Below are positions 13,826 through 62,766 of a stretch of DNA of 64,000 bases, in pieces. Each line of letters begins with the position of its first letter. The stretch's first letter is position 1. The translations under genes and the position numbers were made by a program. The notes beneath the pieces are model-generated. The model saw nothing but the letters and a program-made list of their open reading frames with translations. It was not told the DNA's origin and searched no databases. Origin of the DNA: a bacterium (lineage in GTDB: Bacteria; Patescibacteriota; Minisyncoccia; Phycocordibacterales; JAKAEA01); the NCBI GenBank assembly GCA_021785065.1, contig JAJYGQ010000003.1:2470-66469 (forward strand), given 5' to 3'.

Positions 13826-14254
13826 ATGGCAATCACTATTAAAATTAAAAAATTGAGGCCTGATGCCAAGCTGCCAAGCTATGCGCATCCGGGTGATGTT
13901 GGTCTCGATCTCTACGCTATGGAGGAAAAAACCTTGGCGCCCGGCGAGCACTACCTTTTCAATATTGGTGTGGCTATCGAATTTCCGCACGGCTATGCGG
14001 GTATTGTGAAAGACAAAGGGAGCATCAGTAAAGCAAAACTACACACGATGGGCGGTGTCTATGATGCAGGCTATCGTGGCGAGTATAATGTGCATCTAGT
14101 GAATTTAGGTGATCAACCATACACTGTTGAAGTTGGTGACAAAATCGCTCAACTGGTAATCTTTCCCGTCGAAATTGCCAAAATAGAAGAAACTGATACG
14201 CTGTCCGAATCAGCCCGTGGCACTGGCCGCTTCGGCAGTACTGGCCGCAAATAA
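13826..14254 (+). CDS. dut: dUTP diphosphatase
   Basis: 142 aa, dUTPase motifs AHPGDVGLDLYA, GxIDxGYRG. Confidence 0.9.
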   Translation: MAITIKIKKLRPDAKLPSYAHPGDVGLDLYAMEEKTLAPGEHYLFNIGVAIEFPHGYAGIVKDKGSISKAKLHTMGGVYDAGYRGEYNVHLVNLGDQPYTVEVGDKIAQLVIFPVEIAKIEETDTLSESARGTGRFGSTGRK

Positions 14255-14255
14255 T

Positions 14256-16025
14256 ATGCAGATTCAAGAAACAATCACGACGCTCATCAAGCAAGCGCTA
14301 ATCGCTGTTGGTGCTGCTGCTGTTGACACAGAAATAACACTCGATCATCCGAGTGATTTAAAATTTGGTGACATTTCGACGAATGTGGCGCTCATGCTGG
14401 CAAAAAAACGCGGTGACAATCCCCAAGTGTTGGCAAAAAAAATCGCCGAAGCGATTGTGGCTGAGTTGGAAAGATCACCCAACGCATATTTAGAGAAGGT
14501 GAGCGTTGCCGGCGTCGGTTTTATAAATTTCTCTCTGTCGGAAAAATTTTTCCACGAATCGCTTGCGGAGATTTTGAAAAAAGGCGCCGACTTCGGCAAA
14601 AACGCCCAGCTCTTCAAGGAGAAAATTATCGTTGAATACACTGACCCCAATGCGTTTAAGCCCCTGCATATTGGCCACCTCATGAGCAATGCTATTGGCG
14701 AATCGCTCTCGCGCCTTACACAATTTGAAGGCGCCGAGGTGCGCCGCGCGACCTACGGTTCTGATGTGGGTCTCAATGTGGCTATGGCGGTGTGGGGTAT
14801 GCAAAAGCTCGCTGCGGAAAAATTTTCTGGCGCTCCCACCGCGCAAATATTGGCCGAGCTCCACAAACTGCCGCTCTCGGAAAAAATCGCCTTTGTCGGC
14901 GCGGCCTATGTGCACGGAGCGCAGACCTACGAGCAGGACGAATCGGCAAAAAAAGAAATCACCGAGCTTAATCATAAAATTTATACCCACGCCGACCCGG
15001 TCGCCAATGAATTTTACGTTTTCGGTAAGCGGGCCAGCGTCGATCATTTCAACGAAATGTTCGCGCTGCTCGGCTCAAAATTTGATCATCAAATCTGGGA
15101 GAGCGACATTGCCGCGTTTGGTGAAGAGATTGTCGCGCTTGGTTTGGAACGGGGCATTTTCGAGCGCAGCGACGGGGCAGTAATTTATCCCGGCGAGAAA
15201 AAACCTGACGCTAAAGCGCGCGGACTCCACAATCGTGTTTTCATCACCTCGCACAACATCCCGACCTACGAAGCCAAAGAGCTCGGTCTCACTAAGAAAA
15301 AATTCGAGCTACACGATTTCGACACGTCGGTAGTTATCACCGCCAACGAGCAAAATGATTATTTCAAAGTAGTGCTCGCGGCCCTTGCTGAAATATATCC
15401 GGAAATCGCGCGGCGCACGCGTCACCTCGGTCACGGCATGATGCGTTTTGCCGAAGGTAAGATGAGCTCGCGCACCGGCAACATTGTAACGGGCGAATCG
15501 CTCCTCGCCGAGCTCGCCGCGCGGGCCCTGGAAAAAATGGAAGCAAAAGATGAGAAGATTGCTAACCTTATAGCCGTTGCCGCGCTCAAGTATGCGGTGC
15601 TTAAGCAGTCTATCGGTCGCGATGTGGTTTTTGACAAAGAGCAATCCATTTCATTTGAAGGCGACTCAGGTCCCTATTTACAGTACACCTTCGTGCGCAC
15701 GCAAGCGTTGCTAGCTAAAGCTGAAGAGCAGGGGATTGAACCGGTACTTGGCGAGTTGCCGCAAAACGCAAGCACACTCACGCATCTTCTTTATCGTTTT
15801 CCGGAAATGGTGGAGCGCGCCGCCGCCGACTACGCGCCGCAGTATGTTGCGACATTTCTCACCACCATCGCCGGCGAATTCAACAGCTGGTACGCCGCTG
15901 AAAAGATTATCGACCCAAGCAACAAAAGTGCATCGCAAGCAAAACTCGCCCTCGCCGCCGCCGTCGGCCAGGTACTCCGCAACGGCCTCTGGCTCCTCGG
16001 CATCAGTGCGCCGGAGAGGATGTAA
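14256..16025 (+). CDS. argS: arginyl-tRNA synthetase
   Basis: Class I HIGH motif PLHIGHLMSNAIG, ArgRS-length, DALR anticodon-binding C-terminus. Confidence 0.9.
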   Translation: MQIQETITTLIKQALIAVGAAAVDTEITLDHPSDLKFGDISTNVALMLAKKRGDNPQVLAKKIAEAIVAELERSPNAYLEKVSVAGVGFINFSLSEKFFHESLAEILKKGADFGKNAQLFKEKIIVEYTDPNAFKPLHIGHLMSNAIGESLSRLTQFEGAEVRRATYGSDVGLNVAMAVWGMQKLAAEKFSGAPTAQILAELHKLPLSEKIAFVGAAYVHGAQTYEQDESAKKEITELNHKIYTHADPVANEFYVFGKRASVDHFNEMFALLGSKFDHQIWESDIAAFGEEIVALGLERGIFERSDGAVIYPGEKKPDAKARGLHNRVFITSHNIPTYEAKELGLTKKKFELHDFDTSVVITANEQNDYFKVVLAALAEIYPEIARRTRHLGHGMMRFAEGKMSSRTGNIVTGESLLAELAARALEKMEAKDEKIANLIAVAALKYAVLKQSIGRDVVFDKEQSISFEGDSGPYLQYTFVRTQALLAKAEEQGIEPVLGELPQNASTLTHLLYRFPEMVERAAADYAPQYVATFLTTIAGEFNSWYAAEKIIDPSNKSASQAKLALAAAVGQVLRNGLWLLGISAPERM

Positions 16026-33617: not shown

Positions 33618-34496
33618 TTGACAAAGAATATAGTAGGTATACTATGTAAAAGTCATAAAAGACACAGTGTCATTGGTTATAAAAGACACAAAAATATGAC
33701 TCACGACAAAAACATAGTTATAAGAGACAGTGTCTTTTATAACTCATCTTTTTTCCACAACGACCAAGATTTAATAGAACTTTATAAAAAAATAGAGAGA
33801 ATTTGCGGTGCCGTTTTTTTAGTAACAAGTTTTACGGGAGATACAAATATAATCAAAAAGACAATACAAGAGGCAGCATTGTTGACTTTTAAATCCTGCT
33901 CAAATCTAGTTTTGGGTACGAACATTAACTCTCAAAGGCTCAAGGAGGTGTACGTTAATCTCACCATTCTTTATGCACACCTAGATAGCGCCTTTTGGTC
34001 GGGAGTTTTATCTCAGATGAATACCTCAATTATTCAAAAAGAAATTCAAAATATTATTGCCCTAGTATCAAAATTAGATTCTAAATATAAAGATCAAAGT
34101 AATCCAAAAAATTCATTTCTTACCTTAGTTGAAAAAACAATTCCGAGCGCTACTGGGGAAAATGCCTTTTCTCAAAATATACCCAAAACAGAAGACCATA
34201 TAAAGGACAACATAAAGGACAATATAAAAGACACAACAAAAGACACAAAGGACACTATAAAAGACAAAAATAAAGGACATACTATAAAAAGTCCTTTAAG
34301 TATTAATCATAAGGATAGAACAGATAAGATTAAGTTTATTCTAAGGGATTTTAAGCAAAGAACTATAAAGGACATATCATCACTTTTTCCTGATGTGAGC
34401 GAAAAAACCATCCAACGAGAAATAAATCGCCTTATCGATGAAGGTATTGTTAAGAGGATCGGCGATAGGCGCTGGAGTAGCTATACTCTCGCTTAA
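33618..34496 (+). CDS. hypothetical DNA-binding protein with C-terminal DeoR-like winged HTH and a Lys/Asp (KDxIKD) repeat tract
   Basis: C-terminus TIKDISSLFPDVSEKTIQREINRLIDEGIVKRIG resembles a wHTH; internal KDNIKDNIKDTTKDTKDTIKDKNKG repeat; true start may be the internal Met at 33696. Confidence 0.4.
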   Translation: MTKNIVGILCKSHKRHSVIGYKRHKNMTHDKNIVIRDSVFYNSSFFHNDQDLIELYKKIERICGAVFLVTSFTGDTNIIKKTIQEAALLTFKSCSNLVLGTNINSQRLKEVYVNLTILYAHLDSAFWSGVLSQMNTSIIQKEIQNIIALVSKLDSKYKDQSNPKNSFLTLVEKTIPSATGENAFSQNIPKTEDHIKDNIKDNIKDTTKDTKDTIKDKNKGHTIKSPLSINHKDRTDKIKFILRDFKQRTIKDISSLFPDVSEKTIQREINRLIDEGIVKRIGDRRWSSYTLA

Positions 34497-43047: not shown

Positions 43048-43857
43048 AGCTCCTACCTGAATATGTTGATCAAAAAATTCCACTGCCGCTCGTAAAGGCC
43101 CTTAACAACGGCTTTTATGTCCGCGGCAACGCGGATTTTTTGTTTTCCGAACGATTGTTGCTTGAAAAATACATTCCGTCGCGGCACGACTTTCTAGCAT
43201 CGGCAACGATGTTAGAGGGGTCTTTATAGTGTCGTAGACGGGCAGGTAAAACAATACTGTTATTGAGAATCTTTGATTCCAGATAACAGAGTATATTAAT
43301 TGTGGTTCTTACATTTCCTGACGGGAATGTAAGGGCATATGGTGGATGCCTTGGCTTCAAAAGGCGATGAAGGACGTAGCATAACTGCGATAAGCTTCGG
43401 GGAGGTGTCGAGCAACCGTCAATCCGAAGATTTCCGAATGAGGAAACTCCCGCGTTTTAACGCGGACGTTTGCGCTTGACGCAAACGAGTATACCCAGGG
43501 AAGTAAAACATTTCAGTACCTGGAGGAATAGAGACCAATCGCGCAAGCGAATGGAATTTCCTAAGTAGCGGCGAGCGAAAAGGAATGAGCCCAAACCCGA
43601 TTCCACCTTTGCTGTTTGACGAGAGTCGAATAGCGGAGGTGCGATCGGGGGTTGTAAGGCGGTAACGTCACTTTTATAGTGAGAAGAGTTACAAAATGAG
43701 ATAGTAGCGGAACGTGCTGGAAAGCGCGGCCCCAGAGGGTAATGGCCCCGTACGCGAAACTAACTCATCTCTTTTGTTACCGTTCTTGAGTACCTCGAGA
43801 CACGAATGGCTCGGGGGAATCCAGCGGAACTAACCGCTAAGGCTAAATACTTTTGAA

Positions 43858-43897
<40 letters not shown>

Positions 43898-43967
43898 CAG
43901 CCCGGTGAGGGCGGTGAAATAGACCTGAAACCATATGCCTACAAGGAGTCAGAGCGGGGTACCACTT

Positions 43968-44385
43968 TGCGTGGTATGACGTTCTCAAAATAAAATTAAG
44001 AAAATTTATCTTTCATTCATCAAAATTTTATTGCTGAATATATACACTTTTATTGTGTACTATGTTTATGTAATACAAAGTTTGATGGATACAACCTTCT
44101 ACATAGGTTATACGAATTCAATTGATCGAAGATTGAAAGAACATAACTATAGTAAGGGTCGCTTTACCAGGAAACATATTCCCTGGAAACTTGTTTACTA
44201 TGAAGCATTTAACGACAAATTTCTAGCGAAACGTCGAGAAAAGATGCTCAAAGAAACCAGTAGGGCTTGGCAAGAATTACGAAAACGTCTCGGTGTTAAT
44301 TATCGAGAAAAAAAATCGCAAACAAATCCAGCCCAAGATATATTATTTTCTAAGTAAGTTTATAATTGAGGATGTCATAGTGCCT
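43968..44385 (+). mobile_element. about 415-nt AT-rich insertion in 23S helix-25 region (IVS-like or intron) carrying a GIY-YIG ORF
   Basis: Flanked by a perfect 13-bp helix GGGGTACCACTTT / AAAGTGGTACCCC; E. coli-equivalent position about 540-550, the classic IVS site. Confidence 0.6.
44031..44357 (+). CDS. GIY-YIG family nuclease (small stand-alone type) encoded inside the 23S insertion
   Basis: YVYVIQS...FYIGYTNSIDRRLKEHN plus downstream Arg/Glu catalytic residues. Confidence 0.75.
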   Translation: MLNIYTFIVYYVYVIQSLMDTTFYIGYTNSIDRRLKEHNYSKGRFTRKHIPWKLVYYEAFNDKFLAKRREKMLKETSRAWQELRKRLGVNYREKKSQTNPAQDILFSK

Positions 44386-46099
44386 AAAGTGGTACCCCGT
44401 CATGGCGTGCCTATTGAAGAATGAGCCAACGAGTTCTAGCATCCTGCGGGCTAAAGGCGCGAGCCTGGAGCCGCAGGGAAACCGAGTGTGAATAGCGCGT
44501 TTGTAGGATGCTAGAGACCCGAAGCCAGAGCGATCTACCCATGTGCAGGGTGAATGGTGCCGAAAGGCACCAGGAGGCCCGAACCGATAAGCCGTTCAAC
44601 ACTTTCGGATGACATGTGGGTCGAAGTGAAAAGCTAATCGAGCCTGGTAATAGCTGGTTCTCTCCGAAATAGCTTTTGGGTTAGCGTCGAATGTTCCCAG
44701 GGGGGGTAGAGCACTGGAAGGTCTCGACAGGGCGAAAGCTCGCGAGACCTATCAAACTCCGAATACTCTTGGTTAAAAGTTCGGCAGTTAGACTGTGGGG
44801 GCTAAGCTCCATTGGTCAAAAGGGAAACAGCCCAGATCTCCAGTTAAGGTCCCTAAATTTATGCTAAGTGCACTTAAGGTGGTAGAAATTCTCTAACAAT
44901 GAGGAGGTTGGCTTAGAAGCAGCCATCCTTTAAAGAAAGCGTAACAGCTCACTCATCGAGAGTTTCCGCGCCGAAGATAATCGGGGCTAAGCATAGTACC
45001 GAAACTGAGGACATTATTTTTCTTCGGAAAAATAGCGTGGTAGGAGAGTTTTCGTGTTGCGATGAAGGCGAAGGGGTGACCCACGCTGGAGCGTCACGAA
45101 GTAAGAATGTTGGCACAAGTAACCGCAATCAGTGTGAAAACCACTGACGCCGAAAGATCAAGGTTTCCTTGGCAATGACAATCAGCCAAGGGTTAGTCGG
45201 TCCTAAGGGGATGGCGAACGCCGCACCCGATGGATACATGGTTAATATTCCATGACTTTTGTGTTAGGCGATGAGAGGACGGAGTGCAGTATCCCGAGCA
45301 CCTTATTGGATTGGTGTTCGTGTCGTGAGAGTGGCGTGTAGGAAAATCCGCACGCGGCCGTAAGGCACATTCAAGCGAAGCGAAGCTGTTGAGGGCGACC
45401 TCGACCAATTCGGGAAAGCGCGCTTCCAAGAAAAGTCTCTAAGCTTACTAACACAGAAACCGTACCGCAAACCGACACAGGTGATCAGCTCGAGTAGAGC
45501 AAGGCGAACGAATGAGAAGTCCCCAAGGAACTCGGCAAAAAAGCGGCCGTAACTTCGGAATAAGGCCTGCCTATCGCAAGATAGGCCGCAGCTAAAGTAT
45601 GCTTGGCAACTGTTTACCAAAAACACAGCTCCCTGCGAACTCGAAAGAGGATGTATAGGGGGTGACACTTGACCAATGCCAGAAGGTCAACTATCGGCGG
45701 TGCGATTATATCAAGCTGACTGGTACAAGCCCTGGTGAATGTCGGTCGTAACTATAACGATCCTAAGGTAGCGAAATTCCTTGTCAGGTAAGTTCTGACG
45801 CGCACGAATAGTGTCATGACTGAGCAACTGTCTCGGGGACCCGTTCGGTGAAAATACAATACCGGTGAAGATGCCGGTTACCTGCAGCTAGACGAAAAGA
45901 CCCCGGAAGCTTTACTGCAACTTGGTATTGAGCGTACGTTGTTGATGCGTAGCATAGGTGGGAGAGGTTGAGGGCATGATCTCGGTTGTGCCGGACTCGT
46001 CAGTGAAATACCACTCTTCATAGGTGTACGTTCTAACCCGCGCGGCAAAAACGCGCGGAAACAGTACTAGGCGGGCAGTTTTAGTGGGGCGCTATCCTC

Positions 46100-47059
46100 A
46101 ACTTTGGGCGCCTCAGATTTGGTAAATGGTTCAAACGACCCTCCACCAAGTCAAATTATAAAATCAGGGGGACTTTAGTCCGTAAGGGCTATCGAAAAGT
46201 TAGCTATATGCTGGAACATCCGAGTATCTTTATGTACTCGCTCAAGTTTTTTGAGCAGTGAAAATCGTAAAGTGCGGACAATCAGCAGGAAATGCTCCTA
46301 TTCTAATATTTTTATTCAGCATAGAAGCAAATCCTCAGAGACTACACGCTAACCTCCGCGAAAGCGGATGATGATATAGTCCGATCTTTGTGGCGACACA
46401 AAGCTTACTACATATAGTAAGACCATTAATGAACACTAAGGAAATTCGGGAGTACAAAAACACTCTCAAACTTACTGACATTCAAAAATCTATTCTCGTC
46501 GGAACATTGTTGGGCGATGGACATTTAGAGACGCAAGATAACGGTAAAACGTATCGTCTCAAAATTGAACATCAGTTAGCCCAGCAAGACTACACGGAAT
46601 GGCTTCACAGCCACTTCAAAGAGTGGGTTAGAAATGGAATGTATAGAAAAGTAAAATCACAAGGTAAAGAATATGTCGGATTTACCACATATTCGCACGG
46701 CGCCTTCAGATTTTACGCTCAGCAATTTTACACTGAGAAAAAGAAACATATTCCCAGAATGATCAGTAAATTGCTAAATCCATTAGTTGTTGCGATCTGG
46801 TTTATGGATGATGGTTCGTGGAAATCAGAAAAACACGAAACCTTCATAATACATACGCTCGGATTCACAAAAGAAGATCTTACGTTGATACAAGATTCGT
46901 TTAGAAAATTGTTCAATATAGAAACTTCACTTCATCGACAAAAAGAAAGATATTGGAGGTTGTATATACGATCAAGTTCCGCAAAAGAATTTGAAAAACT
47001 AATACAACCTTACACATCACTCGTTGATTCTATGAAGAAAAAGATGGGTAACAATAAGC
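46100..47059 (+). mobile_element. group I intron in 23S rRNA (domain V, before CTAAAGAGTAACGGAGG) encoding a LAGLIDADG endonuclease
   Basis: Exon sequence resumes exactly at CTAAAGAGTAACGGAGGAG; intron contains AGAGACTACACG (P7/J8-7-like); ORF stop codon lies in the downstream exon. Confidence 0.7.
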
Positions 47060-47070
47060 CTAAAGAGTAA
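46390..47070 (+). CDS. double-motif LAGLIDADG homing endonuclease
   Basis: ILVGTLLGDGHL and VVAIWFMDDGS motifs about 100 aa apart. Confidence 0.85.
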   Translation: MATQSLLHIVRPLMNTKEIREYKNTLKLTDIQKSILVGTLLGDGHLETQDNGKTYRLKIEHQLAQQDYTEWLHSHFKEWVRNGMYRKVKSQGKEYVGFTTYSHGAFRFYAQQFYTEKKKHIPRMISKLLNPLVVAIWFMDDGSWKSEKHETFIIHTLGFTKEDLTLIQDSFRKLFNIETSLHRQKERYWRLYIRSSSAKEFEKLIQPYTSLVDSMKKKMGNNKPKE

Positions 47071-47392
47071 CGGAGGAGTCTATTAAGGTCGGCTAGGCGC
47101 GAATGGAAACCGTGCCGATAGGGCATTGCCACAAGCCGGCTTGACTGCAAGAGGTAAGTCTCGAGCAGGTGCGAAAGCAGAGCAAAGTGAACCGACCATC
47201 CGCATTAGATGCGGTGGAAGATTATCTGACAAAAGCTACTCCGGGGATAACAGGCTGGTACTGCCTAAGCGTCCATAGCGACGGCAGTGTTCGGCACCTC
47301 GATGTCGGCTCAAGATATCCTCCTGGTGGAGAAGCTAGGAAGGGTTTGGCTGTTCGCCAATTAAAATCTTACGCGAGCTGGGTTCAGACCGT

Positions 47393-47714
47393 TCAGCGCT
47401 CAAATCGGAATTTTGGAATTTTCTGAAATTTTTGACATTGAGCATTGAACCGTCTGAATCCCGAGGTTTAGTTTCAGTTCCACAACTATCTGTAACTTGT
47501 TCACGGCGGTCCCGTCGAGTAATCGGCGGTGACACAGTCAACTTATATCGGTGAAGCCCATATCGTGGGAACACGAGTGCTGGTGACACCTAGGGAATTT
47601 TGTAAATTTTTACAAATGCCCGTAGAGACTACACGTTGACTATCTTTCTCGGAGTTTATAGACCGAGTGAGATAAAAATATAGTCCATTGCACGGAGTGA
47701 TCCGTGGAAACAAG
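47393..47714 (+). mobile_element. ORF-less group I intron in 23S at the L2593-equivalent site (between GACCGT and CGTGAGACAG)
   Basis: Exon context GCGAGCTGGGTTCAGACCGT | ... | CGTGAGACAGGTTGGTC matches the I-CreI/L2593 homing site; contains AGAGACTACACG core-like element. Confidence 0.65.
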
Positions 47715-47856
47715 CGTGAGACAGGTTGGTCTCCTATCTGCTGCAGGCGTTGATTCTTGAAGAGATTTGACTCTAGTACGAGAGGACCGAGTTGAACTGA
47801 CCTCTGGTGTGGCAGCTCTGGCGCCAGCTGGACCGCTGCGTAGCTATGTCGGGAAC

Positions 47857-47889
<33 letters not shown>

Positions 47890-48072
47890 GACTCTAAGAT
47901 TAGGAATCGTTAAGACCCGTGGGAGATGACCACGTTGATAGGCACCAGGTGTACGCACAGTAATGTGTTGAGCCGAGGTGTACTAATTGGTCGATCTTGT
48001 CAGGAAATGTACGAAGCACAAAATATACTCTGTTACCTGGAATTACAAAGAAATTAAAACATTGAATGTTGT

Positions 48073-54679: not shown

Positions 54680-54957
54680 GTCTCCTACTCTCTATAGGGG
54701 AGTTGGTTCTTTGAAACTTGAAATACTTGAGATGGGTGGAGCCGGTAAAAACGGCTGCATCCAGCAAGTACCCAAATTATTCTTACAAAAATAATTCCAA
54801 ATAAAATAAGTCAGTTTTATTCGAGCAATCAAACTCTACGAATCTAAATTATTGTTAGGCATAAGAACATATTAAAGCGATAGTTTTCACTAGCGTCTTT
54901 TATTTTGTTCCGTTTGACTCGTCAAGAATCTTATTCGATTCTTCGCGAGGATAATTT

Positions 54958-56555
<1,598 letters not shown>

Positions 56556-56783
56556 TTCAAGGTGAATTTCGTCAATCATCACTTGATGATTAGACTGACG
56601 GAGTCGATATTGTGGATCTCGTACGAGTCCATAATGGAACGCGAATTCCTAAAGCGCTGACCGCAGGGAAAGACCGCAAATAAACGGAACAAAATAAAGG
56701 ACGTCGCTTCTTTATTCGGAAAAATCGCCTTAATAGGGCGGTTTTTCTTTTATTAGGTCATATTTTTAGGGTACAGAAAAGTA

Positions 56784-57458: not shown

Positions 57459-57532
57459 GGGCGTATAGCTCAGGTGGTTAGAGCGCGTCACTGATAATGA
57501 CGAGGTCCCACGTTCGAGTCGTGGTACGCCCA
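57459..57532 (+). tRNA. tRNA-Ile (anticodon GAT)
   Basis: GGGCGTATAGCTCAGGTGGTTAGAGCGCGTCACTGATAATGACGAGGTCCCACGTTCGAGTCGTGGTACGCCCA; cloverleaf with anticodon loop cTGATAa. Confidence 0.9.
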
Positions 57533-58987
57533 CATTCCTCGGAAATCGATGTTTTTAGGCGCAGTGGCGAGTACTTGATAGACGCTTTTAAATTGAGCTG
57601 AAGCCACCGTTTGGTTTTTGATAGAAGCGTTCGAGAGTACTTTTCCGAGCATATTTCGCTTTTCTTCCTCGGTGTAGTTCAAATACGTTTCCGCGGCCTT
57701 GTTGCCCTCTAAAAGAACTTCTTTAATCTGTTCGAGAGTAAAAGGCGACACACCACCCCTAGCTTGGATTTCGGCGATTTGCTTCTTGATAATAACCCGC
57801 TTGTTTTCAATCTCCTGAAGCTTGATTTTGTAGACTTCTTCCCGGATTAATTGAGAACTGTAGCCATCGGCCAGAGTTAATTCTTTCTTGAGCAGATCGT
57901 CCAACTCCGCAGTCAGAGTTCCCGTTGAATTTTCAACATACGTGATTTTGCCTTTATTTTCTTCCTTATACATATCATAGGAGAATTCGATCAATTCTTC
58001 TCTGAATTTTAATTTGAGAAAAAGGTTGGATAGAAGAGCGTGAACATCATCGGATTTCAGATACTTTTTGTGTTCTTCGCAGTTACCCCTGCCATTGGTG
58101 CAGTAGTAATATTGGTGGCCCCGTTGGGTGTCCACGGTTAACGCGCAGCCGCAGGAGGCGCATTTCAGGAATCCCTGAGCGGCGTAGAAGTACTTTTTCG
58201 GGCGAGGGTGATTCCGGCCGGCGAGAACGTCTTGCACGGTGTCAAACAGTTTTTGAGATATGATCGGTGTATGTTTGCCGGGGTAAATTTTGCCGTCACG
58301 AGGCATGAGGCCGGTGTAGAAGCGGTTGAGGAGCAAGCGCTGTAACTGACCTTTTTCGATTTTGTTGCCGGTTTTGGTTCGTAAACCTTCTTTGTAGAGA
58401 ATGTCGCTGGTTTGCTTCAGCGTGTGAGTGCCTGTGGCGTAGAGCTCAAATGCGCGGGTGATAAACGGAGCATACTTTTTGTCCACGACGACGGTTTTGG
58501 TAGTCTTGTCGTTAAGATATCCCAGAGGCGCTTGATTGGGCCATTCACCACGTTCCAGTTTTGCTCGGTTGCCTCGTTTGACGTTGACGCTAAGGTCACG
58601 AATGTATTGATTGGCCATGGCCTGCTCAATGCTCATGACGATGACGTTGTCGTTAGGGTAGTAGCTTTTATCAAACGTCCGAATGCACTTAATCTGATTG
58701 TTTTGGAGGAGCCATTGAATCTGACCGCCATCCACTGGATTTCTCGTTAAACGGTCAATTTTCCAGCAGAGAATGGCATCGGCTTTGCCGGCGGTGATCA
58801 TTTTGATCATGTCATTGAAGATGGGCCGGCCGGGCTCTTTAGCCGATTTGCTTTCCTTGAGAATGGCAATTACGTCTAAGCCATTAGCTTTGACGATTTT
58901 CTGGAGCTCGTCTTCTTGCGATGCCAGCGACAAAACCTGTTTATCTTCAGTATCAGTGGATTTTCTACAATAGAGAATAAATTTCAT
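57488..58987 (-). CDS. large serine recombinase (integrase), C-terminus encoded on the complement of tRNA-Ile
   Basis: Catalytic YCRKSTDTEDKQ...SLASQ...DRLTRN resolvase domain, recombinase domain, zinc ribbon CASCGC...YYYC; last 15 codons and TGA stop overlap the tRNA anticodon and T arms. Confidence 0.85.
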   Translation of the reverse strand: MKFILYCRKSTDTEDKQVLSLASQEDELQKIVKANGLDVIAILKESKSAKEPGRPIFNDMIKMITAGKADAILCWKIDRLTRNPVDGGQIQWLLQNNQIKCIRTFDKSYYPNDNVIVMSIEQAMANQYIRDLSVNVKRGNRAKLERGEWPNQAPLGYLNDKTTKTVVVDKKYAPFITRAFELYATGTHTLKQTSDILYKEGLRTKTGNKIEKGQLQRLLLNRFYTGLMPRDGKIYPGKHTPIISQKLFDTVQDVLAGRNHPRPKKYFYAAQGFLKCASCGCALTVDTQRGHQYYYCTNGRGNCEEHKKYLKSDDVHALLSNLFLKLKFREELIEFSYDMYKEENKGKITYVENSTGTLTAELDDLLKKELTLADGYSSQLIREEVYKIKLQEIENKRVIIKKQIAEIQARGGVSPFTLEQIKEVLLEGNKAAETYLNYTEEEKRNMLGKVLSNASIKNQTVASAQFKSVYQVLATAPKNIDFRGMWAYHDSNVGPRHYQ

Positions 58988-59023: not shown

Positions 59024-59782
59024 TCAAATTTTGTAAATTCTGTGTCGTCCTGTGCCCAGGCGCATAGTGTCGTAGGATTTATCTATTTCCGGCTCACCGG
59101 CACCCAATTCTTGAAGCGCAGCATCTACAGCGGTGGCACTGATACCACCAACTATTTCCGGTCGTAGCAGATTTCTTGAGCAGGTATACGATTTTTGACC
59201 CATTAAGCGGTAATCGGTAAAAGATTTAGTCATATACTTAGCTAGATAGGAAGATAATCTTGGGCCACCATCACTTTGGATTACGTCAATGAAGCCGTGT
59301 CCCCAGAGTCCTTTAACCAATCGGGTATGTCGCTCTGTTTTAGCGAGGGTCTCGGGAAGACCCCAGAGCATAGCATGGAAATGAATGGCTCCACGGTCTT
59401 GAAATTCTGGGACTGCGATGTACCGAAATTGTTTGCCGAATTGATGGCGGAGAGTCTGGATAAAAGCATGGAAATCTTTGTATCCATGACTGAGAGACGT
59501 TTGGTTGTCTTGGTAGGTAAGAGTAAGCAGTAGAGGGTGGTCAACTCCTCCAAGGTTAGCAGAAACAAGCCGTCTAAAAGCCATTGCAGCGCGCCGTGCG
59601 TTATCTTGGCGTTTGCCCTCGTATTCGTGTCGCTGTAATGGATTTTCTCCACCAGGAGCCACACCCACGCCGCCATTTTTAACCGAAAAGCGTCTCTGTC
59701 TTGGGGGTCTATCTGGAAGGTCTCGTGAGTATTCATATGTTTCAATTGTGTGAGCGTATTTAATAATTTTGTTGTATCCCAT
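59024..59782 (-). CDS. rep: rolling-circle replication initiator, Rep_1 (pC194/pUB110-like) HUH endonuclease family
   Basis: Motif I LLLTLTY, motif II HFHAMLW (HUH), motif III YLAKYMTK (catalytic Tyr). Confidence 0.75.
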   Translation of the reverse strand: MGYNKIIKYAHTIETYEYSRDLPDRPPRQRRFSVKNGGVGVAPGGENPLQRHEYEGKRQDNARRAAMAFRRLVSANLGGVDHPLLLTLTYQDNQTSLSHGYKDFHAFIQTLRHQFGKQFRYIAVPEFQDRGAIHFHAMLWGLPETLAKTERHTRLVKGLWGHGFIDVIQSDGGPRLSSYLAKYMTKSFTDYRLMGQKSYTCSRNLLRPEIVGGISATAVDAALQELGAGEPEIDKSYDTMRLGTGRHRIYKI

Positions 59783-59814
59783 TTCTTTTTCTCTAGTTAC
59801 TTATGTGAGGTACT

Positions 59815-59844
59815 TATCAAGTCAGACAGCGGGGTCGTCCCCGC
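59815..59844 (-). promoter_or_regulatory. candidate double-strand origin: CTTGATA nick heptamer (minus strand) adjacent to GC-rich hairpins, 33 nt upstream of rep
   Basis: Minus-strand CTTGATA at 59815..59821 equals the pC194-family nick core; hairpin GCGGGG-tcgt-CCCCGC at 59829..59844 and a second GC palindrome to about 59870. Confidence 0.45.
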
Positions 59845-60013
59845 CGCCACTAAAGTGGCGCGGCGGCGACTGCCCGCTCTCGGCAATAACAGCAATTAAT
59901 CCAGCCAATGATTCTAAATATTCTTGGGCAGTCTCATCCGAAAGCTCCAAGCCGTAATACTTTTTGAAGTAGGCTTTGCACCTCTCTATGAGCAGTTGAT
60001 TTACAGTCCGCAT
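59822..60013 (-). CDS. small hypothetical protein (63 aa) upstream of rep; 3' end overlaps the GC hairpins
   Basis: ORF only; could instead be non-coding origin/leader. Confidence 0.25.
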   Translation of the reverse strand: MRTVNQLLIERCKAYFKKYYGLELSDETAQEYLESLAGLIAVIAESGQSPPRHFSGGGDDPAV

Positions 60014-60107: not shown

Positions 60108-61052
60108 ATGCCCACTATTAAGCGGGAGTATGGAAAACTCAAAGCAAAACCAACCTTTTTCAAGAAAGGAACTGTCGTCTATTCAAATTCCGGCCACGCA
60201 TTACACCTTTCCAATGGCTACTATCGTTGCAGTCTAAATTGCAGAAAAGAGCTTGGCAGCAAAGAAAGCCAAGTTGAACAGGAGCGTCTGCACCGAGATT
60301 TTTCTCGAATAGCTAAACGTTTCGCGATTGGTGAGGACGATGTCAACGCTGTCTTGCGCCAATTGATGCAGAGGTATTTTGTGAATACGTTGTTTGATAT
60401 TGACGAAAAGACCGATAGCAAAGGAAGAATAATTAACGCCAATATCGTCAAAATGAAGGCTGATATTAAACGGGGTGAATTTGTCAAAAGAGACGTGACT
60501 GATTCTTTTGATCGATTCATGGAAATCAGTAAAGACGAATATCCATTTATCATGTTCTGTTACGCTTTTGGTGTTATTGGATCATTGTCGGCATTGCATG
60601 GGGAGCGTGAGATTGGGCAAGTCTTGGCCGCGATTACCAAACACGTCTATATATCAGATATTGGAATTGTAGAGAAAATTGAATTTGAACCATGGGGCTG
60701 GTACATCTTGAATTTCATGGAAAAACAGGTGCCGAACTATTTATGGAGTCTTAAAAAACATGGGGTAGATATCACCAATGACCACACCGATCAATTTTTG
60801 AAAAAAGATTTTTCGGCGGCAATCGCGTATTTTGAATCCGAAGGTTTTGAAGAAGCACTCCACAATGATATGACCCAAGTTCTCTACAAACTTTTTTCGT
60901 TGATGAGAGATTCAATACGAGTACTTTTAAAAGGCGATACAGCATCAATGCAAAAAGCCTACACGGATTTGGTTGAACGATTTAAGAAAGATCCAGTATT
61001 CAAAATGGCAATGATGTTGCCGGCATTAGGAAGTGGAAAGATCAAACTTTAA
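60108..61052 (+). CDS. hypothetical protein (314 aa) of the element
   Basis: Clean ORF, no recognisable motif. Confidence 0.45.
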   Translation: MPTIKREYGKLKAKPTFFKKGTVVYSNSGHALHLSNGYYRCSLNCRKELGSKESQVEQERLHRDFSRIAKRFAIGEDDVNAVLRQLMQRYFVNTLFDIDEKTDSKGRIINANIVKMKADIKRGEFVKRDVTDSFDRFMEISKDEYPFIMFCYAFGVIGSLSALHGEREIGQVLAAITKHVYISDIGIVEKIEFEPWGWYILNFMEKQVPNYLWSLKKHGVDITNDHTDQFLKKDFSAAIAYFESEGFEEALHNDMTQVLYKLFSLMRDSIRVLLKGDTASMQKAYTDLVERFKKDPVFKMAMMLPALGSGKIKL

Positions 61053-61053
61053 C

Positions 61054-61429
61054 AGAAATACCGTTCCGGCCGCTTAAGCCGGGCAGGTTCTCACACCGCC
61101 CGTGGGGTTTGCGGCTTCTTATTTTCGGGCACAATGGCGCGTCCTTGGCGCAGCATCGTAGTGAAGCACAAACGCTTACACCATAGAGCTTTCTAGCGCT
61201 ATGGAGATTTCCTCTCTTTTGGGAAAGGAAATAGTAGAAGCCAGAAAGTCCTATGGGCTGGCTTCACTACCATACTGCGCCGGTCGCGACAAACATTAAA
61301 GGAAATAGTAGAAGCCAGAAAGTCCTATGGGCTGGCTTCACTACCATACTGCGCCGGTCGCGACAAACATTAGTGGCTTGAAGCCCGAAACCTCCACGGG
61401 CTTACGAGAGCGGCCGGAACCGTATTTCT
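61054..61429. repeat. 376-bp structured non-coding block: 20-bp terminal inverted repeats (1 mismatch) enclosing a 74-bp direct repeat x2, each unit with an 8-bp-stem hairpin
   Basis: Left arm GAAATACCGTTCCGGCCGC (61055..61073) versus right arm GCGGCCGGAACCGTATTTC (61410..61428); repeat units 61225..61298 and 61299..61372; hairpin GAAGCCAG...CTGGCTTC. Confidence 0.8.
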
Positions 61430-61466: not shown

Positions 61467-62009
61467 ATGGATTTTTATATCATTTTTGCCGGTATTATTG
61501 AACAGGGTTTTGCCAATAAACTTGTTGTAGCAATAAATAGGGCAGCCACTCTTAAAGTAAGAAAAATATTTATTTTTTTCTCATCTTTAGGCGGGAACAT
61601 TCAAGAAGGATTCACTATCGCGTCAGTTATCCAAAATTCCACAATTCCAATATCAATCCACGCTAATAACAATATTGATTCAATCGCTAATGTAATATAC
61701 TTATCAGCAAAAGAAAGGACCGCGGAATCTTACGCAAAATTTTATCTTCATGGCGCAACAGGTCCTCAAGTTGCATACGATGAAAAAGGTTTGAAAGAAC
61801 AACTTTTGGCAGTTAAAACAGAAAATACACGCATAGCACAGTTTGTATCTGAAAATTCGAATCTAAATTTCAAAAAAGTCCAAGCCATGATGCGGGCAGG
61901 AACAACGATGACTACCCAACAGGCGTTGCAGTATGGGATAGTTAAAGAAATCATCCACAAAGAAGTACCGATTGACGCGGTCAAGGAAGAGATTTTAATT
62001 GTTAATTAA
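61467..62009 (+). CDS. ClpP-like (S14 family) serine protease, short form (phage prohead-protease-like)
   Basis: ClpP-like blocks IFFSSLGGNIQEGFTIASVI (compare INSPGGVITAGMSIYDTM), Ser in DSIAN, His in YLHGATG. Confidence 0.55.
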   Translation: MDFYIIFAGIIEQGFANKLVVAINRAATLKVRKIFIFFSSLGGNIQEGFTIASVIQNSTIPISIHANNNIDSIANVIYLSAKERTAESYAKFYLHGATGPQVAYDEKGLKEQLLAVKTENTRIAQFVSENSNLNFKKVQAMMRAGTTMTTQQALQYGIVKEIIHKEVPIDAVKEEILIVN

Positions 62010-62011
62010 TT

Positions 62012-62245
62012 ATGAAAAATACAACAATGGAATATGTAAAAAAAATAGTTGAGGAATCATTAAAAAATATGGGTTGTACTGACGTGGCATTCCCTGACCC
62101 TAAAGAAGATCTTGTTATAGCCGTTTTTAACTGCAAAGAAATTACAAGTTTTGTTACTGAAATACCAGGATGGACACATTCGGGTATTCATTTAGATCCA
62201 ACTCACGAACATCAATACAAAATTGACTTTAAAAGATTAAGCTAA
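62012..62245 (+). CDS. hypothetical protein (77 aa)
   Basis: ORF immediately after the ClpP-like gene stop (ATG 3 nt downstream); no motif. Confidence 0.35.
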   Translation: MKNTTMEYVKKIVEESLKNMGCTDVAFPDPKEDLVIAVFNCKEITSFVTEIPGWTHSGIHLDPTHEHQYKIDFKRLS

Positions 62246-62337
62246 TATTGTTTAGGTATATTATTCGCAAAATGGGAATAATGAAAATGACGCAACAAAT
62301 TAAAAATTAAATCAGATTAATCTTCTAAAAACTTTTT

Positions 62338-62766
62338 ATGGAAAACGATCGAGAAATTATATATGGTATGGAAGGTAAAAAAGTGAAGGGATTGCCTCTG
62401 GATGACTTGGAAAAATTAATGCGCGAATGGCAGAAGAAACTTCTCATGGACAACTGGAAGCTCGATTTAAAGATTGTCGATTTTAAAAGGAAAAATAATT
62501 ACCGTCAAAGTGGCGATTTCATAGCCGATCCTGACAAGAAAAACGCTTCTATCTTGATGACTTGGGATCCGTGGCGCGGCGATGAAGAGTACACGCTTGT
62601 TCACGAAATGTTGCACGTCTTGGTATATGACTATGATAAATACAGCGAGGGTTTAATTCTTGGTCATTATAAAAAATTCGAAGGTGAACACGATGTGTAC
62701 ATGGATAAATTAGAAAATCTAGTTCATCATTTGACCAGGATGTTGCTCGGGCGGTCAGACAGGTAG
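62338..62766 (+). CDS. putative zinc metallopeptidase (HExxH; ImmA/IrrE-like size)
   Basis: TLVHEMLHVL HExxH motif in a 142-aa protein. Confidence 0.45.
   Translation: MENDREIIYGMEGKKVKGLPLDDLEKLMREWQKKLLMDNWKLDLKIVDFKRKNNYRQSGDFIADPDKKNASILMTWDPWRGDEEYTLVHEMLHVLVYDYDKYSEGLILGHYKKFEGEHDVYMDKLENLVHHLTRMLLGRSDR

Follow-up and report, generated by a model that had tools for sequence, protein, structure and literature searches.

A block of 376 nt at positions 61054–61429 of the window (the whole 64-kb stretch of DNA that was analysed) lies inside an integrative rolling-circle element of approximately 5.3 kb in a Patescibacteria (CPR) genome. At one side of the element is a tRNA-Ile gene (57459–57533, plus strand), the probable integration site, overlapped on the opposite strand by the 3’-end of a gene for a large serine recombinase, the integrase (57488–58987, minus strand), which has Resolvase, Recombinase and Zn_ribbon_recom domains. 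The next gene (59024–59782, minus strand) encodes Rep, an HUH rolling-circle replication initiator that matches REP_ORF2-G2P (PF23343; E = 2.4e-22) and PHROG 3419 (2.4e-28). A putative double-strand origin (59809–59880, minus strand) is found just upstream of the Rep start, and its hairpin is overlapped by the 3’-end of a conserved small ORF of 63 aa (59822–60013, minus strand), which was recovered by tblastn at 40–58% identity in many relatives. The plus strand carries a 314-aa ORF (60108–61052) with no match in Pfam or PHROG, whose stop codon is 1 nt before the block. Past the block are a ClpP-like protease, a 77-aa ORF and a 142-aa HExxH ORF (61467–62766, plus strand), a variable cargo that differs between relatives and for which PADLOC and PHROGs scans were uninformative. 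No morphogenesis genes occur in the element.

The window is of the Patescibacteria/CPR type, as its 23S rRNA gene contains a group I intron, its 16S rRNA gene is unlinked from the 23S gene, and all close relatives of its Rep come from Patescibacteria MAGs. The 23S gene (43319–48004) is 4686 nt long, against 2925 nt in the model, and includes further insertions in addition to the intron (46133–46403); the 16S gene (54956–56562) does not precede the 23S gene but is located ~7 kb downstream of the 5S gene. The most AT-rich kilobase of the window includes a degenerate, A-rich tandem array (34184–34279) with periods of 12, 21 and 24 nt.

In three related elements (L014, L019 and L037) the recombinase is likewise found beside a tRNA gene, which points to tRNA genes as the integration targets. 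Direct repeats that would mark attL and attR were searched for and none were found, the outcome to be expected with a serine recombinase. A terminal-overlap test for circular forms disclosed circles only among unrelated small plasmids and none of the integrative elements. A set of circular contigs (L070–L075), all of 1796 nt with a 95-nt terminal overlap, carries a Rep fragment 38% identical to the window Rep; the Streptomyces, Microbacterium and Herminiimonas assemblies in which these contigs occur belong to a single sequencing series, and the contigs may represent a common contaminant or a very small rolling-circle replicon.

Immediately ahead of the Rep start codon, every close relative carries on its Rep-sense strand a GC-rich hairpin followed by the sequence TGACTTG(A/C)TAA...ACCTAACATAAGGA. 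In the window this sequence is TGACTTGATAAGTACC (59809–59824, minus strand), and it includes CTTGATA, which is present in the phiX174 origin too. CTTGATA is also the site at which the pC194-type (Rep_1) Reps nick (PMC10378824). The segment 59809–59880 thus has the look of a putative double-strand origin of the pC194/phiX174 type. As the nick motif is on the Rep-sense strand, the strand that is nicked and displaced should be the Rep-sense one, namely the minus strand of the window. Zot-encoding contigs of ~5 kb, in which all genes are on the Rep strand, have the same origin motif at a distance of ~50 nt upstream of Rep. Five such contigs (L108–L112, ~5.0–5.7 kb) carry Rep homologues 43–51% identical to the window Rep together with a Zot-like ATPase, and three of them (L108–L110) are one genome in different circular permutations. 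The permutations, the presence of Zot and the single-strand gene layout identify these as inovirus-like circular genomes, and L108–L112 are probably tiny inoviruses of Patescibacteria.

The block itself was described in the earlier note as bounded by near-perfect terminal inverted repeats, with imperfect inner arms, two exact 74-bp direct repeats each containing a hairpin with an 8-bp stem, and no ORF. All of these features were recovered. The terminal arms (61054–61074 and 61409–61429) form a 21-nt inverted repeat that is 95% complementary, constitutes the closing helix and is unique in the window; a 19-mer from the arm has only two sites in the 64 kb, both at the block ends, where shuffled sequences predict 0. 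An inner arm at 61147–61167 can pair with 61261–61281 or with 61335–61355, at 90% in either case. The two tandem copies (61224–61297 and 61298–61371; TRF score 298) are 100% identical, and each includes the hairpin GAAGCCAG/CTGGCTTC with a 13-nt loop, at 61237–61265 in copy 1 and at 61311–61339 in copy 2. The block lacks ORFs of 60 aa or more; it has only two, of 42 and 43 aa, both derived from the repeats. The G+C content of the block is 53%, compared with 36–40% in the flanking genes.

Folding of both strands, which the earlier note had called for, gave structures far beyond chance. As RNA, the plus strand folds with −173.4 kcal/mol (z −9.6) and the minus strand with −187.8 kcal/mol (z −12.2), and with DNA parameters the energies are −92.1 and −95.4 kcal/mol (z −9.1 and −9.7), respectively. 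Either strand forms a single long imperfect hairpin, with z from about −9 to −12.7 for the full or the de-duplicated sequence. Removal of one 74-nt copy leaves a nearly continuous rod of 302 nt, for which the minus strand has −157.9 kcal/mol (z −12.65). Copy 1 starts 1–2 nt from the apex of this rod and represents one arm of its apical part, and the second copy produces an extra side branch.

In order to place the block in a wider context, 80 genomic loci were fetched via Rep, which has 165 detectable homologues, and 18 metagenomic loci via a profile of the 314-aa ORF. Homologues of this ORF were found neither by a viral-contig search nor by a single-sequence protein search; a further profile search gave 10 proteins, and the two closest loci are without a rod. 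The close relatives keep a core of recombinase, Rep and 63-aa ORF, in most cases together with the 314-aa ORF; a tRNA gene is usually adjacent, and the cargo past the rod varies from element to element. A GC-rich rod of 299–317 nt, GTGGCGCC...GGCGAA, was identified in at least 24 loci and is here designated family A. These rods start 0–7 nt past the stop codon of the homologue of the 314-aa ORF and 1.25–1.6 kb upstream of Rep, and their orientation is constant. In two elements (L006 and L014) an unrelated ORF of 280–296 aa on the Rep strand replaces the 314-aa ORF, and both the orientation of the rod and its distance from Rep are unchanged; the rod therefore belongs with the replication module and not with the 314-aa ORF. 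One locus has a second, partial copy of the 3’ part of the family A rod (L090:3863–3970), ~1 kb upstream of the full rod. Further strong palindromes of 70–170 nt occur downstream of related elements, outside this slot (L032:12858–12981, 13962–14033 and 14749–14860; L007:12728–13045).

The slot is not always occupied by a rod. Six elements with a homologue of the 314-aa ORF (L031, L089, L092, L096, L103 and L104) have none, and in two others (L037 and L095) the slot holds a LOOT RNA (Rfam RF03000) on the strand opposite to that of the rods. The LOOT matches, at L037:2300–2409 (minus strand) and L095:4039–4150 (plus strand), score 78 and 71 bits against a gathering score of 46, and both are directly after the homologue of the 314-aa ORF and on its strand. 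LOOT may be a component of these Patescibacteria integrative elements.

Covariation was analysed in an alignment of 19 family A sequences, with controls in which the pairing partners were slid by 1–3 columns and with shuffled alignments. Standard pairs are formed in 95% of the alignment cells, compared with 31–43% in the slid and 82.9% in the shuffled controls. Compensatory changes affect 31 of the 63 pairs (at most 10 when slid, 21.7 when shuffled), and the covariation score is 0.372 (0.06–0.08 and 0.166, respectively). None of 500 shuffles reached the observed value of pairing, compensatory change or covariation. The covariation that the earlier note proposed to look for in related elements is thus present in the family A rods, the positional equivalents of the window rod.

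The question of which strand is structured was addressed by folding the 19 family A rods without G·U pairs, which makes the helices identical on both strands, and by tallying the oppositions in symmetric internal loops. The Rep-sense strand had 57 G·G, 50 G·T, 70 G·A and 44 T·T oppositions, and the strand of the 314-aa ORF 11, 11, 8 and 10, respectively. In DNA and RNA alike, the mismatches that destabilise least are G·T, G·G and G·A, and the counts indicate that the tolerated kinds are ~5 times commoner on the Rep-sense strand. On the complementary strand these oppositions become C·C, A·C, C·T and A·A, kinds that are disruptive. In all 19 rods, moreover, the Rep-sense strand gave the more stable fold, whether RNA or DNA parameters were used. 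Thus, the structure of the family A rods is selected on the Rep-sense strand, the same strand that is predicted to be displaced during replication. In the window rod the Rep-sense strand folds better as well, in the full and in the de-duplicated form and with both sets of parameters; its bias is weak, with five mismatches that speak for the minus strand against three for the plus strand and an energy advantage of the minus strand of 10–14 kcal/mol as RNA and 3 kcal/mol as DNA.

The 74-nt duplication is probably real. The block is identical in a second NCBI contig (DAHWSO010000015.1, GCA_027328845.1), and the Logan assembly of SRR13178631, made independently, is interrupted 30 nt inside copy 1 and 29–30 nt before the end of copy 2, with break points at 61253 and 61343. 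Such breaks fit a k=31 graph if the junction between the copies is present in the reads, and a duplication created by the assembly, the chimera against which the earlier note had warned, is therefore unlikely. The repeat is absent from all 19 family A rods, and the duplication, specific to this lineage, is a recent slippage product with a side branch and not a functional repeat array. Iterons, which the earlier note had considered, are several short Rep-binding repeats (about 17–22 bp). The block resembles the iterons of theta plasmids in having direct repeats near a replication gene. It differs from them in that there are only two copies, exact and 74 nt long, where three or more short repeats are expected; these copies are a duplicated hairpin arm that no relative carries, they lie on a rolling-circle replicon, and the Rep is an HUH nickase and not an iteron-binding initiator. 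The iteron assignment was accordingly dropped.

The relation of the window rod to family A was examined by blastn and by nhmmer with a family A profile against the window, and no sequence similarity was detected. The longest common substring is a 10-mer, CCGGGCAGGT, at offsets 26 and 29, which is not significant, since matches of at least 10 nt occur in ~30% of shuffles. Shared with family A are the slot, the orientation, the size (302 nt without the duplication), the G+C enrichment and the rod shape. As the window rod was found nowhere else and does not resemble family A in sequence, its assignment rests on position and architecture; homology is unproven, and the covariation is a property of the family A sequences and not of the window's own. 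With this reservation, the block represents in the window a structured element that recurs among relatives and is supported there by covariation, and it may be expected to do the same job as the family A rods.

Rolling-circle replicons depend on a lagging-strand origin, which works only in single-stranded form. The position of the rods, their size, conservation and strand specificity, their independence of the neighbouring genes and the absence of a conserved promoter outside them all fit such a role, and a single-strand origin (sso), functional on the minus (Rep-sense) strand, is therefore ranked first among the readings considered; on balance it seemed somewhat probable. Of the sso suggested in the earlier note, what stands is a non-coding region with extensive intrastrand pairing on an HUH Rep replicon with a recognisable double-strand origin, with covarying rods in the same slot of related elements whose structure, in family A, is selected on the predicted displaced strand. 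The role itself is not proven, and an assignment to the ssoA-type families was not supported. Neither strand of the block has the CS-6 motif TAGCG(A/T), nor do 18 of the 19 family A rods, the window having only the near match TAGCGC, and no pair of sigma-70-like −35/−10 hexamers is conserved in either arm or strand of the rods, although the promoter consensus of Patescibacteria is not known.

According to the sso reading, the serine recombinase would excise the element as a circle, and Rep would nick the minus strand within CTTG/ATA, at ~59815. Leading-strand synthesis would then displace the minus strand in the order Rep, recombinase gene and cargo. Once ~70% of the circle had been copied, the block would be exposed as single-stranded DNA and could snap into the imperfect hairpin of ~300 nt, at which host primase or RNA polymerase might prime the complementary strand. 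Both types of enzyme are used for priming at known sso’s (PMC5714925). Excision and replication of the element, and priming of DNA synthesis by the rod, are predictions of this reading.

Other explanations of the rod were weighed against the same data. One is a structured non-coding RNA of ~300 nt, transcribed from the minus strand in the Rep direction. Folded into a long, imperfectly double-stranded rod, it might serve, for instance, as an antisense or copy-control RNA or sequester a protein. Such an RNA would account equally well for the covariation and for the G·U-rich mismatch signature on the Rep-sense strand. The z of −12 in RNA folding is also in its favour, as is LOOT, a bona fide candidate sRNA whose occurrence in the slot of related elements indicates that this slot can host RNA genes. 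However, LOOT is on the opposite strand. It measures ~110 nt and ends with a terminator-like helix and a U-tract, and no LOOT match was found in the window. A promoter/terminator scan of the minus strand disclosed no promoter-like site before the rod and no conserved terminator after it. The upstream (cargo-side) flank differs between elements, and the gene context varies, the rod being antisense to the 3’-end of a gene in most loci and upstream of a co-directional ORF in L006 and L014. No Rfam family was matched either: the window, scanned at the gathering threshold, and the block, scanned with E allowed up to 10, produced nothing but noise (best E 0.24–9, far below threshold), the outcome was the same for one family A rod, and the families left unmatched by the block include GEBRO, LOOT, GOLLD, ROOL, HEARO, 6S, RNase P and tmRNA. 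A minus-strand RNA is accordingly regarded as possible but doubtful. The more specific idea that the minus strand encodes RNase P RNA or tmRNA, prompted by GAAAGTCC and CCCGGCTTA, was dropped, since the Rfam scans were negative and ARAGORN detected no tmRNA. Still less support attaches to the idea that the rod belongs to the plus-strand mRNA of the 314-aa ORF, either as a 3’-UTR stabiliser or as a terminator insulating the core from the cargo genes. The close spacing between the stop codon and the rod, in the window and in most relatives, and a promoter-like site after the block, upstream of the cargo gene, would suit such a feature, but the mismatch signature and the fold energies favour the opposite strand, the rod orientation is kept in L006 and L014, where a gene on the other strand replaces the 314-aa ORF, and no U-tract follows the rod on the plus strand. 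This explanation is considered very improbable.

The filamentous phages offer a further possibility, that of a packaging or morphogenesis signal on the displaced strand, with or without a minus-strand origin, in a capsid-less element exported by a helper phage as a satellite. Packaging signals of the Ff phages are imperfect hairpins of about 78 nt on the plus strand. Like the Ff intergenic hairpins (packaging signal and minus-strand origin), the rods are imperfect hairpins, predicted to be plus-strand-specific, in a replicon with a Rep of the G2P/ORF2 type. They differ from the Ff hairpins in their much greater length and in being 1.3 kb from the nick site instead of beside it, and the element has no coat or assembly genes. 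The Rep family and the origin motif common to the ~5-kb Zot-encoding circular genomes provide a link to filamentous phages, and the lack of morphogenesis genes is what a satellite would have. Against this, the rod is four times longer than the Ff packaging signal, the inovirus-like relatives contain no sequence related to the rods, and no helper/satellite pairing is documented; packaging is hence judged unlikely. A combined form, in which the rods are an undescribed class of GC-rich, nearly continuous ssDNA hairpins of ~300 nt that serve both as minus-strand origin and as helper-phage packaging signal, the elements being inovirus satellites in CPR bacteria, is held to be rather unlikely too. 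Last, the terminal inverted repeats that bound the block could indicate a palindrome of double-stranded DNA, be it a site for protein binding or recombination, a selfish insert of the MITE type or an artefact of assembly, and covariation alone does not distinguish between duplex DNA and a fold of one strand. The asymmetry of the mismatch types between the strands favours a single-stranded fold. A MITE or dispersed palindromic repeat would be present in multiple dispersed copies, whereas the block is in single copy in the 64 kb, has no second copy in any fetched locus, gave no blastn match to phages and plasmids, and had 0 hits in exact-pattern scans of viral contigs with two of its motifs. Serine recombinase attachment sites are about 50 bp, far from the size of the block, and an artefact is at odds with the agreement of the two assemblies and with the break points described above. 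All of these readings therefore have very little to recommend them.

The mobile elements of Patescibacteria (CPR) are almost uncharacterised, and the present analysis delineates one recurrent type, an integrative rolling-circle element composed of a tRNA-adjacent serine recombinase, an HUH Rep with an origin of the CTTGATA type, a small ORF, a variable ORF, a rod and cargo. If the rod is the lagging-strand origin, it would be a marker for finding such elements and a candidate cis-element for replicating vectors in CPR bacteria or their hosts, and one functional slot would be filled by unrelated sequences, namely family A, the window rod and LOOT RNA.

Among known systems, the closest are the sso’s of rolling-circle plasmids and ICEs (ssoA, ssoT, ssoU and ssoW; sso1 of ICEBs1). 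Like these, the block is non-coding, has a length of a few hundred nt and belongs to a replicon with an HUH Rep, where it is separate from and upstream of the double-strand origin. Extensive imperfect intrastrand pairing is a further common feature, and in the family A rods the structure is selected on one strand only. Known sso’s are 168–340 nt long, a range that includes the rod, are orientation-specific, and are defined by structure more than by sequence (PMC4595007). Unlike them, the rod is one nearly continuous GC-rich helix and not two or three separate stem-loops, it has no sequence similarity to any of them and lacks CS-6 and promoter-like hexamers, and it is carried by an integrative element of Patescibacteria that encodes a serine recombinase. 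The GEBRO, ARRPOF and PAGEV motifs (Weinberg et al. 2017, PMC5737381) do not match the block through their Rfam models even at E up to 10 and occur in other hosts and replicons, but they resemble the rod in being structured plasmid motifs of 223–349 nt for which action as single-stranded DNA has been proposed, GEBRO being a G+C-enriched region on a rolling-circle plasmid (PMC5737381). An sso on a rolling-circle element is expected biology, and if the rod is one, it is the sequence and the structural form that are new here.
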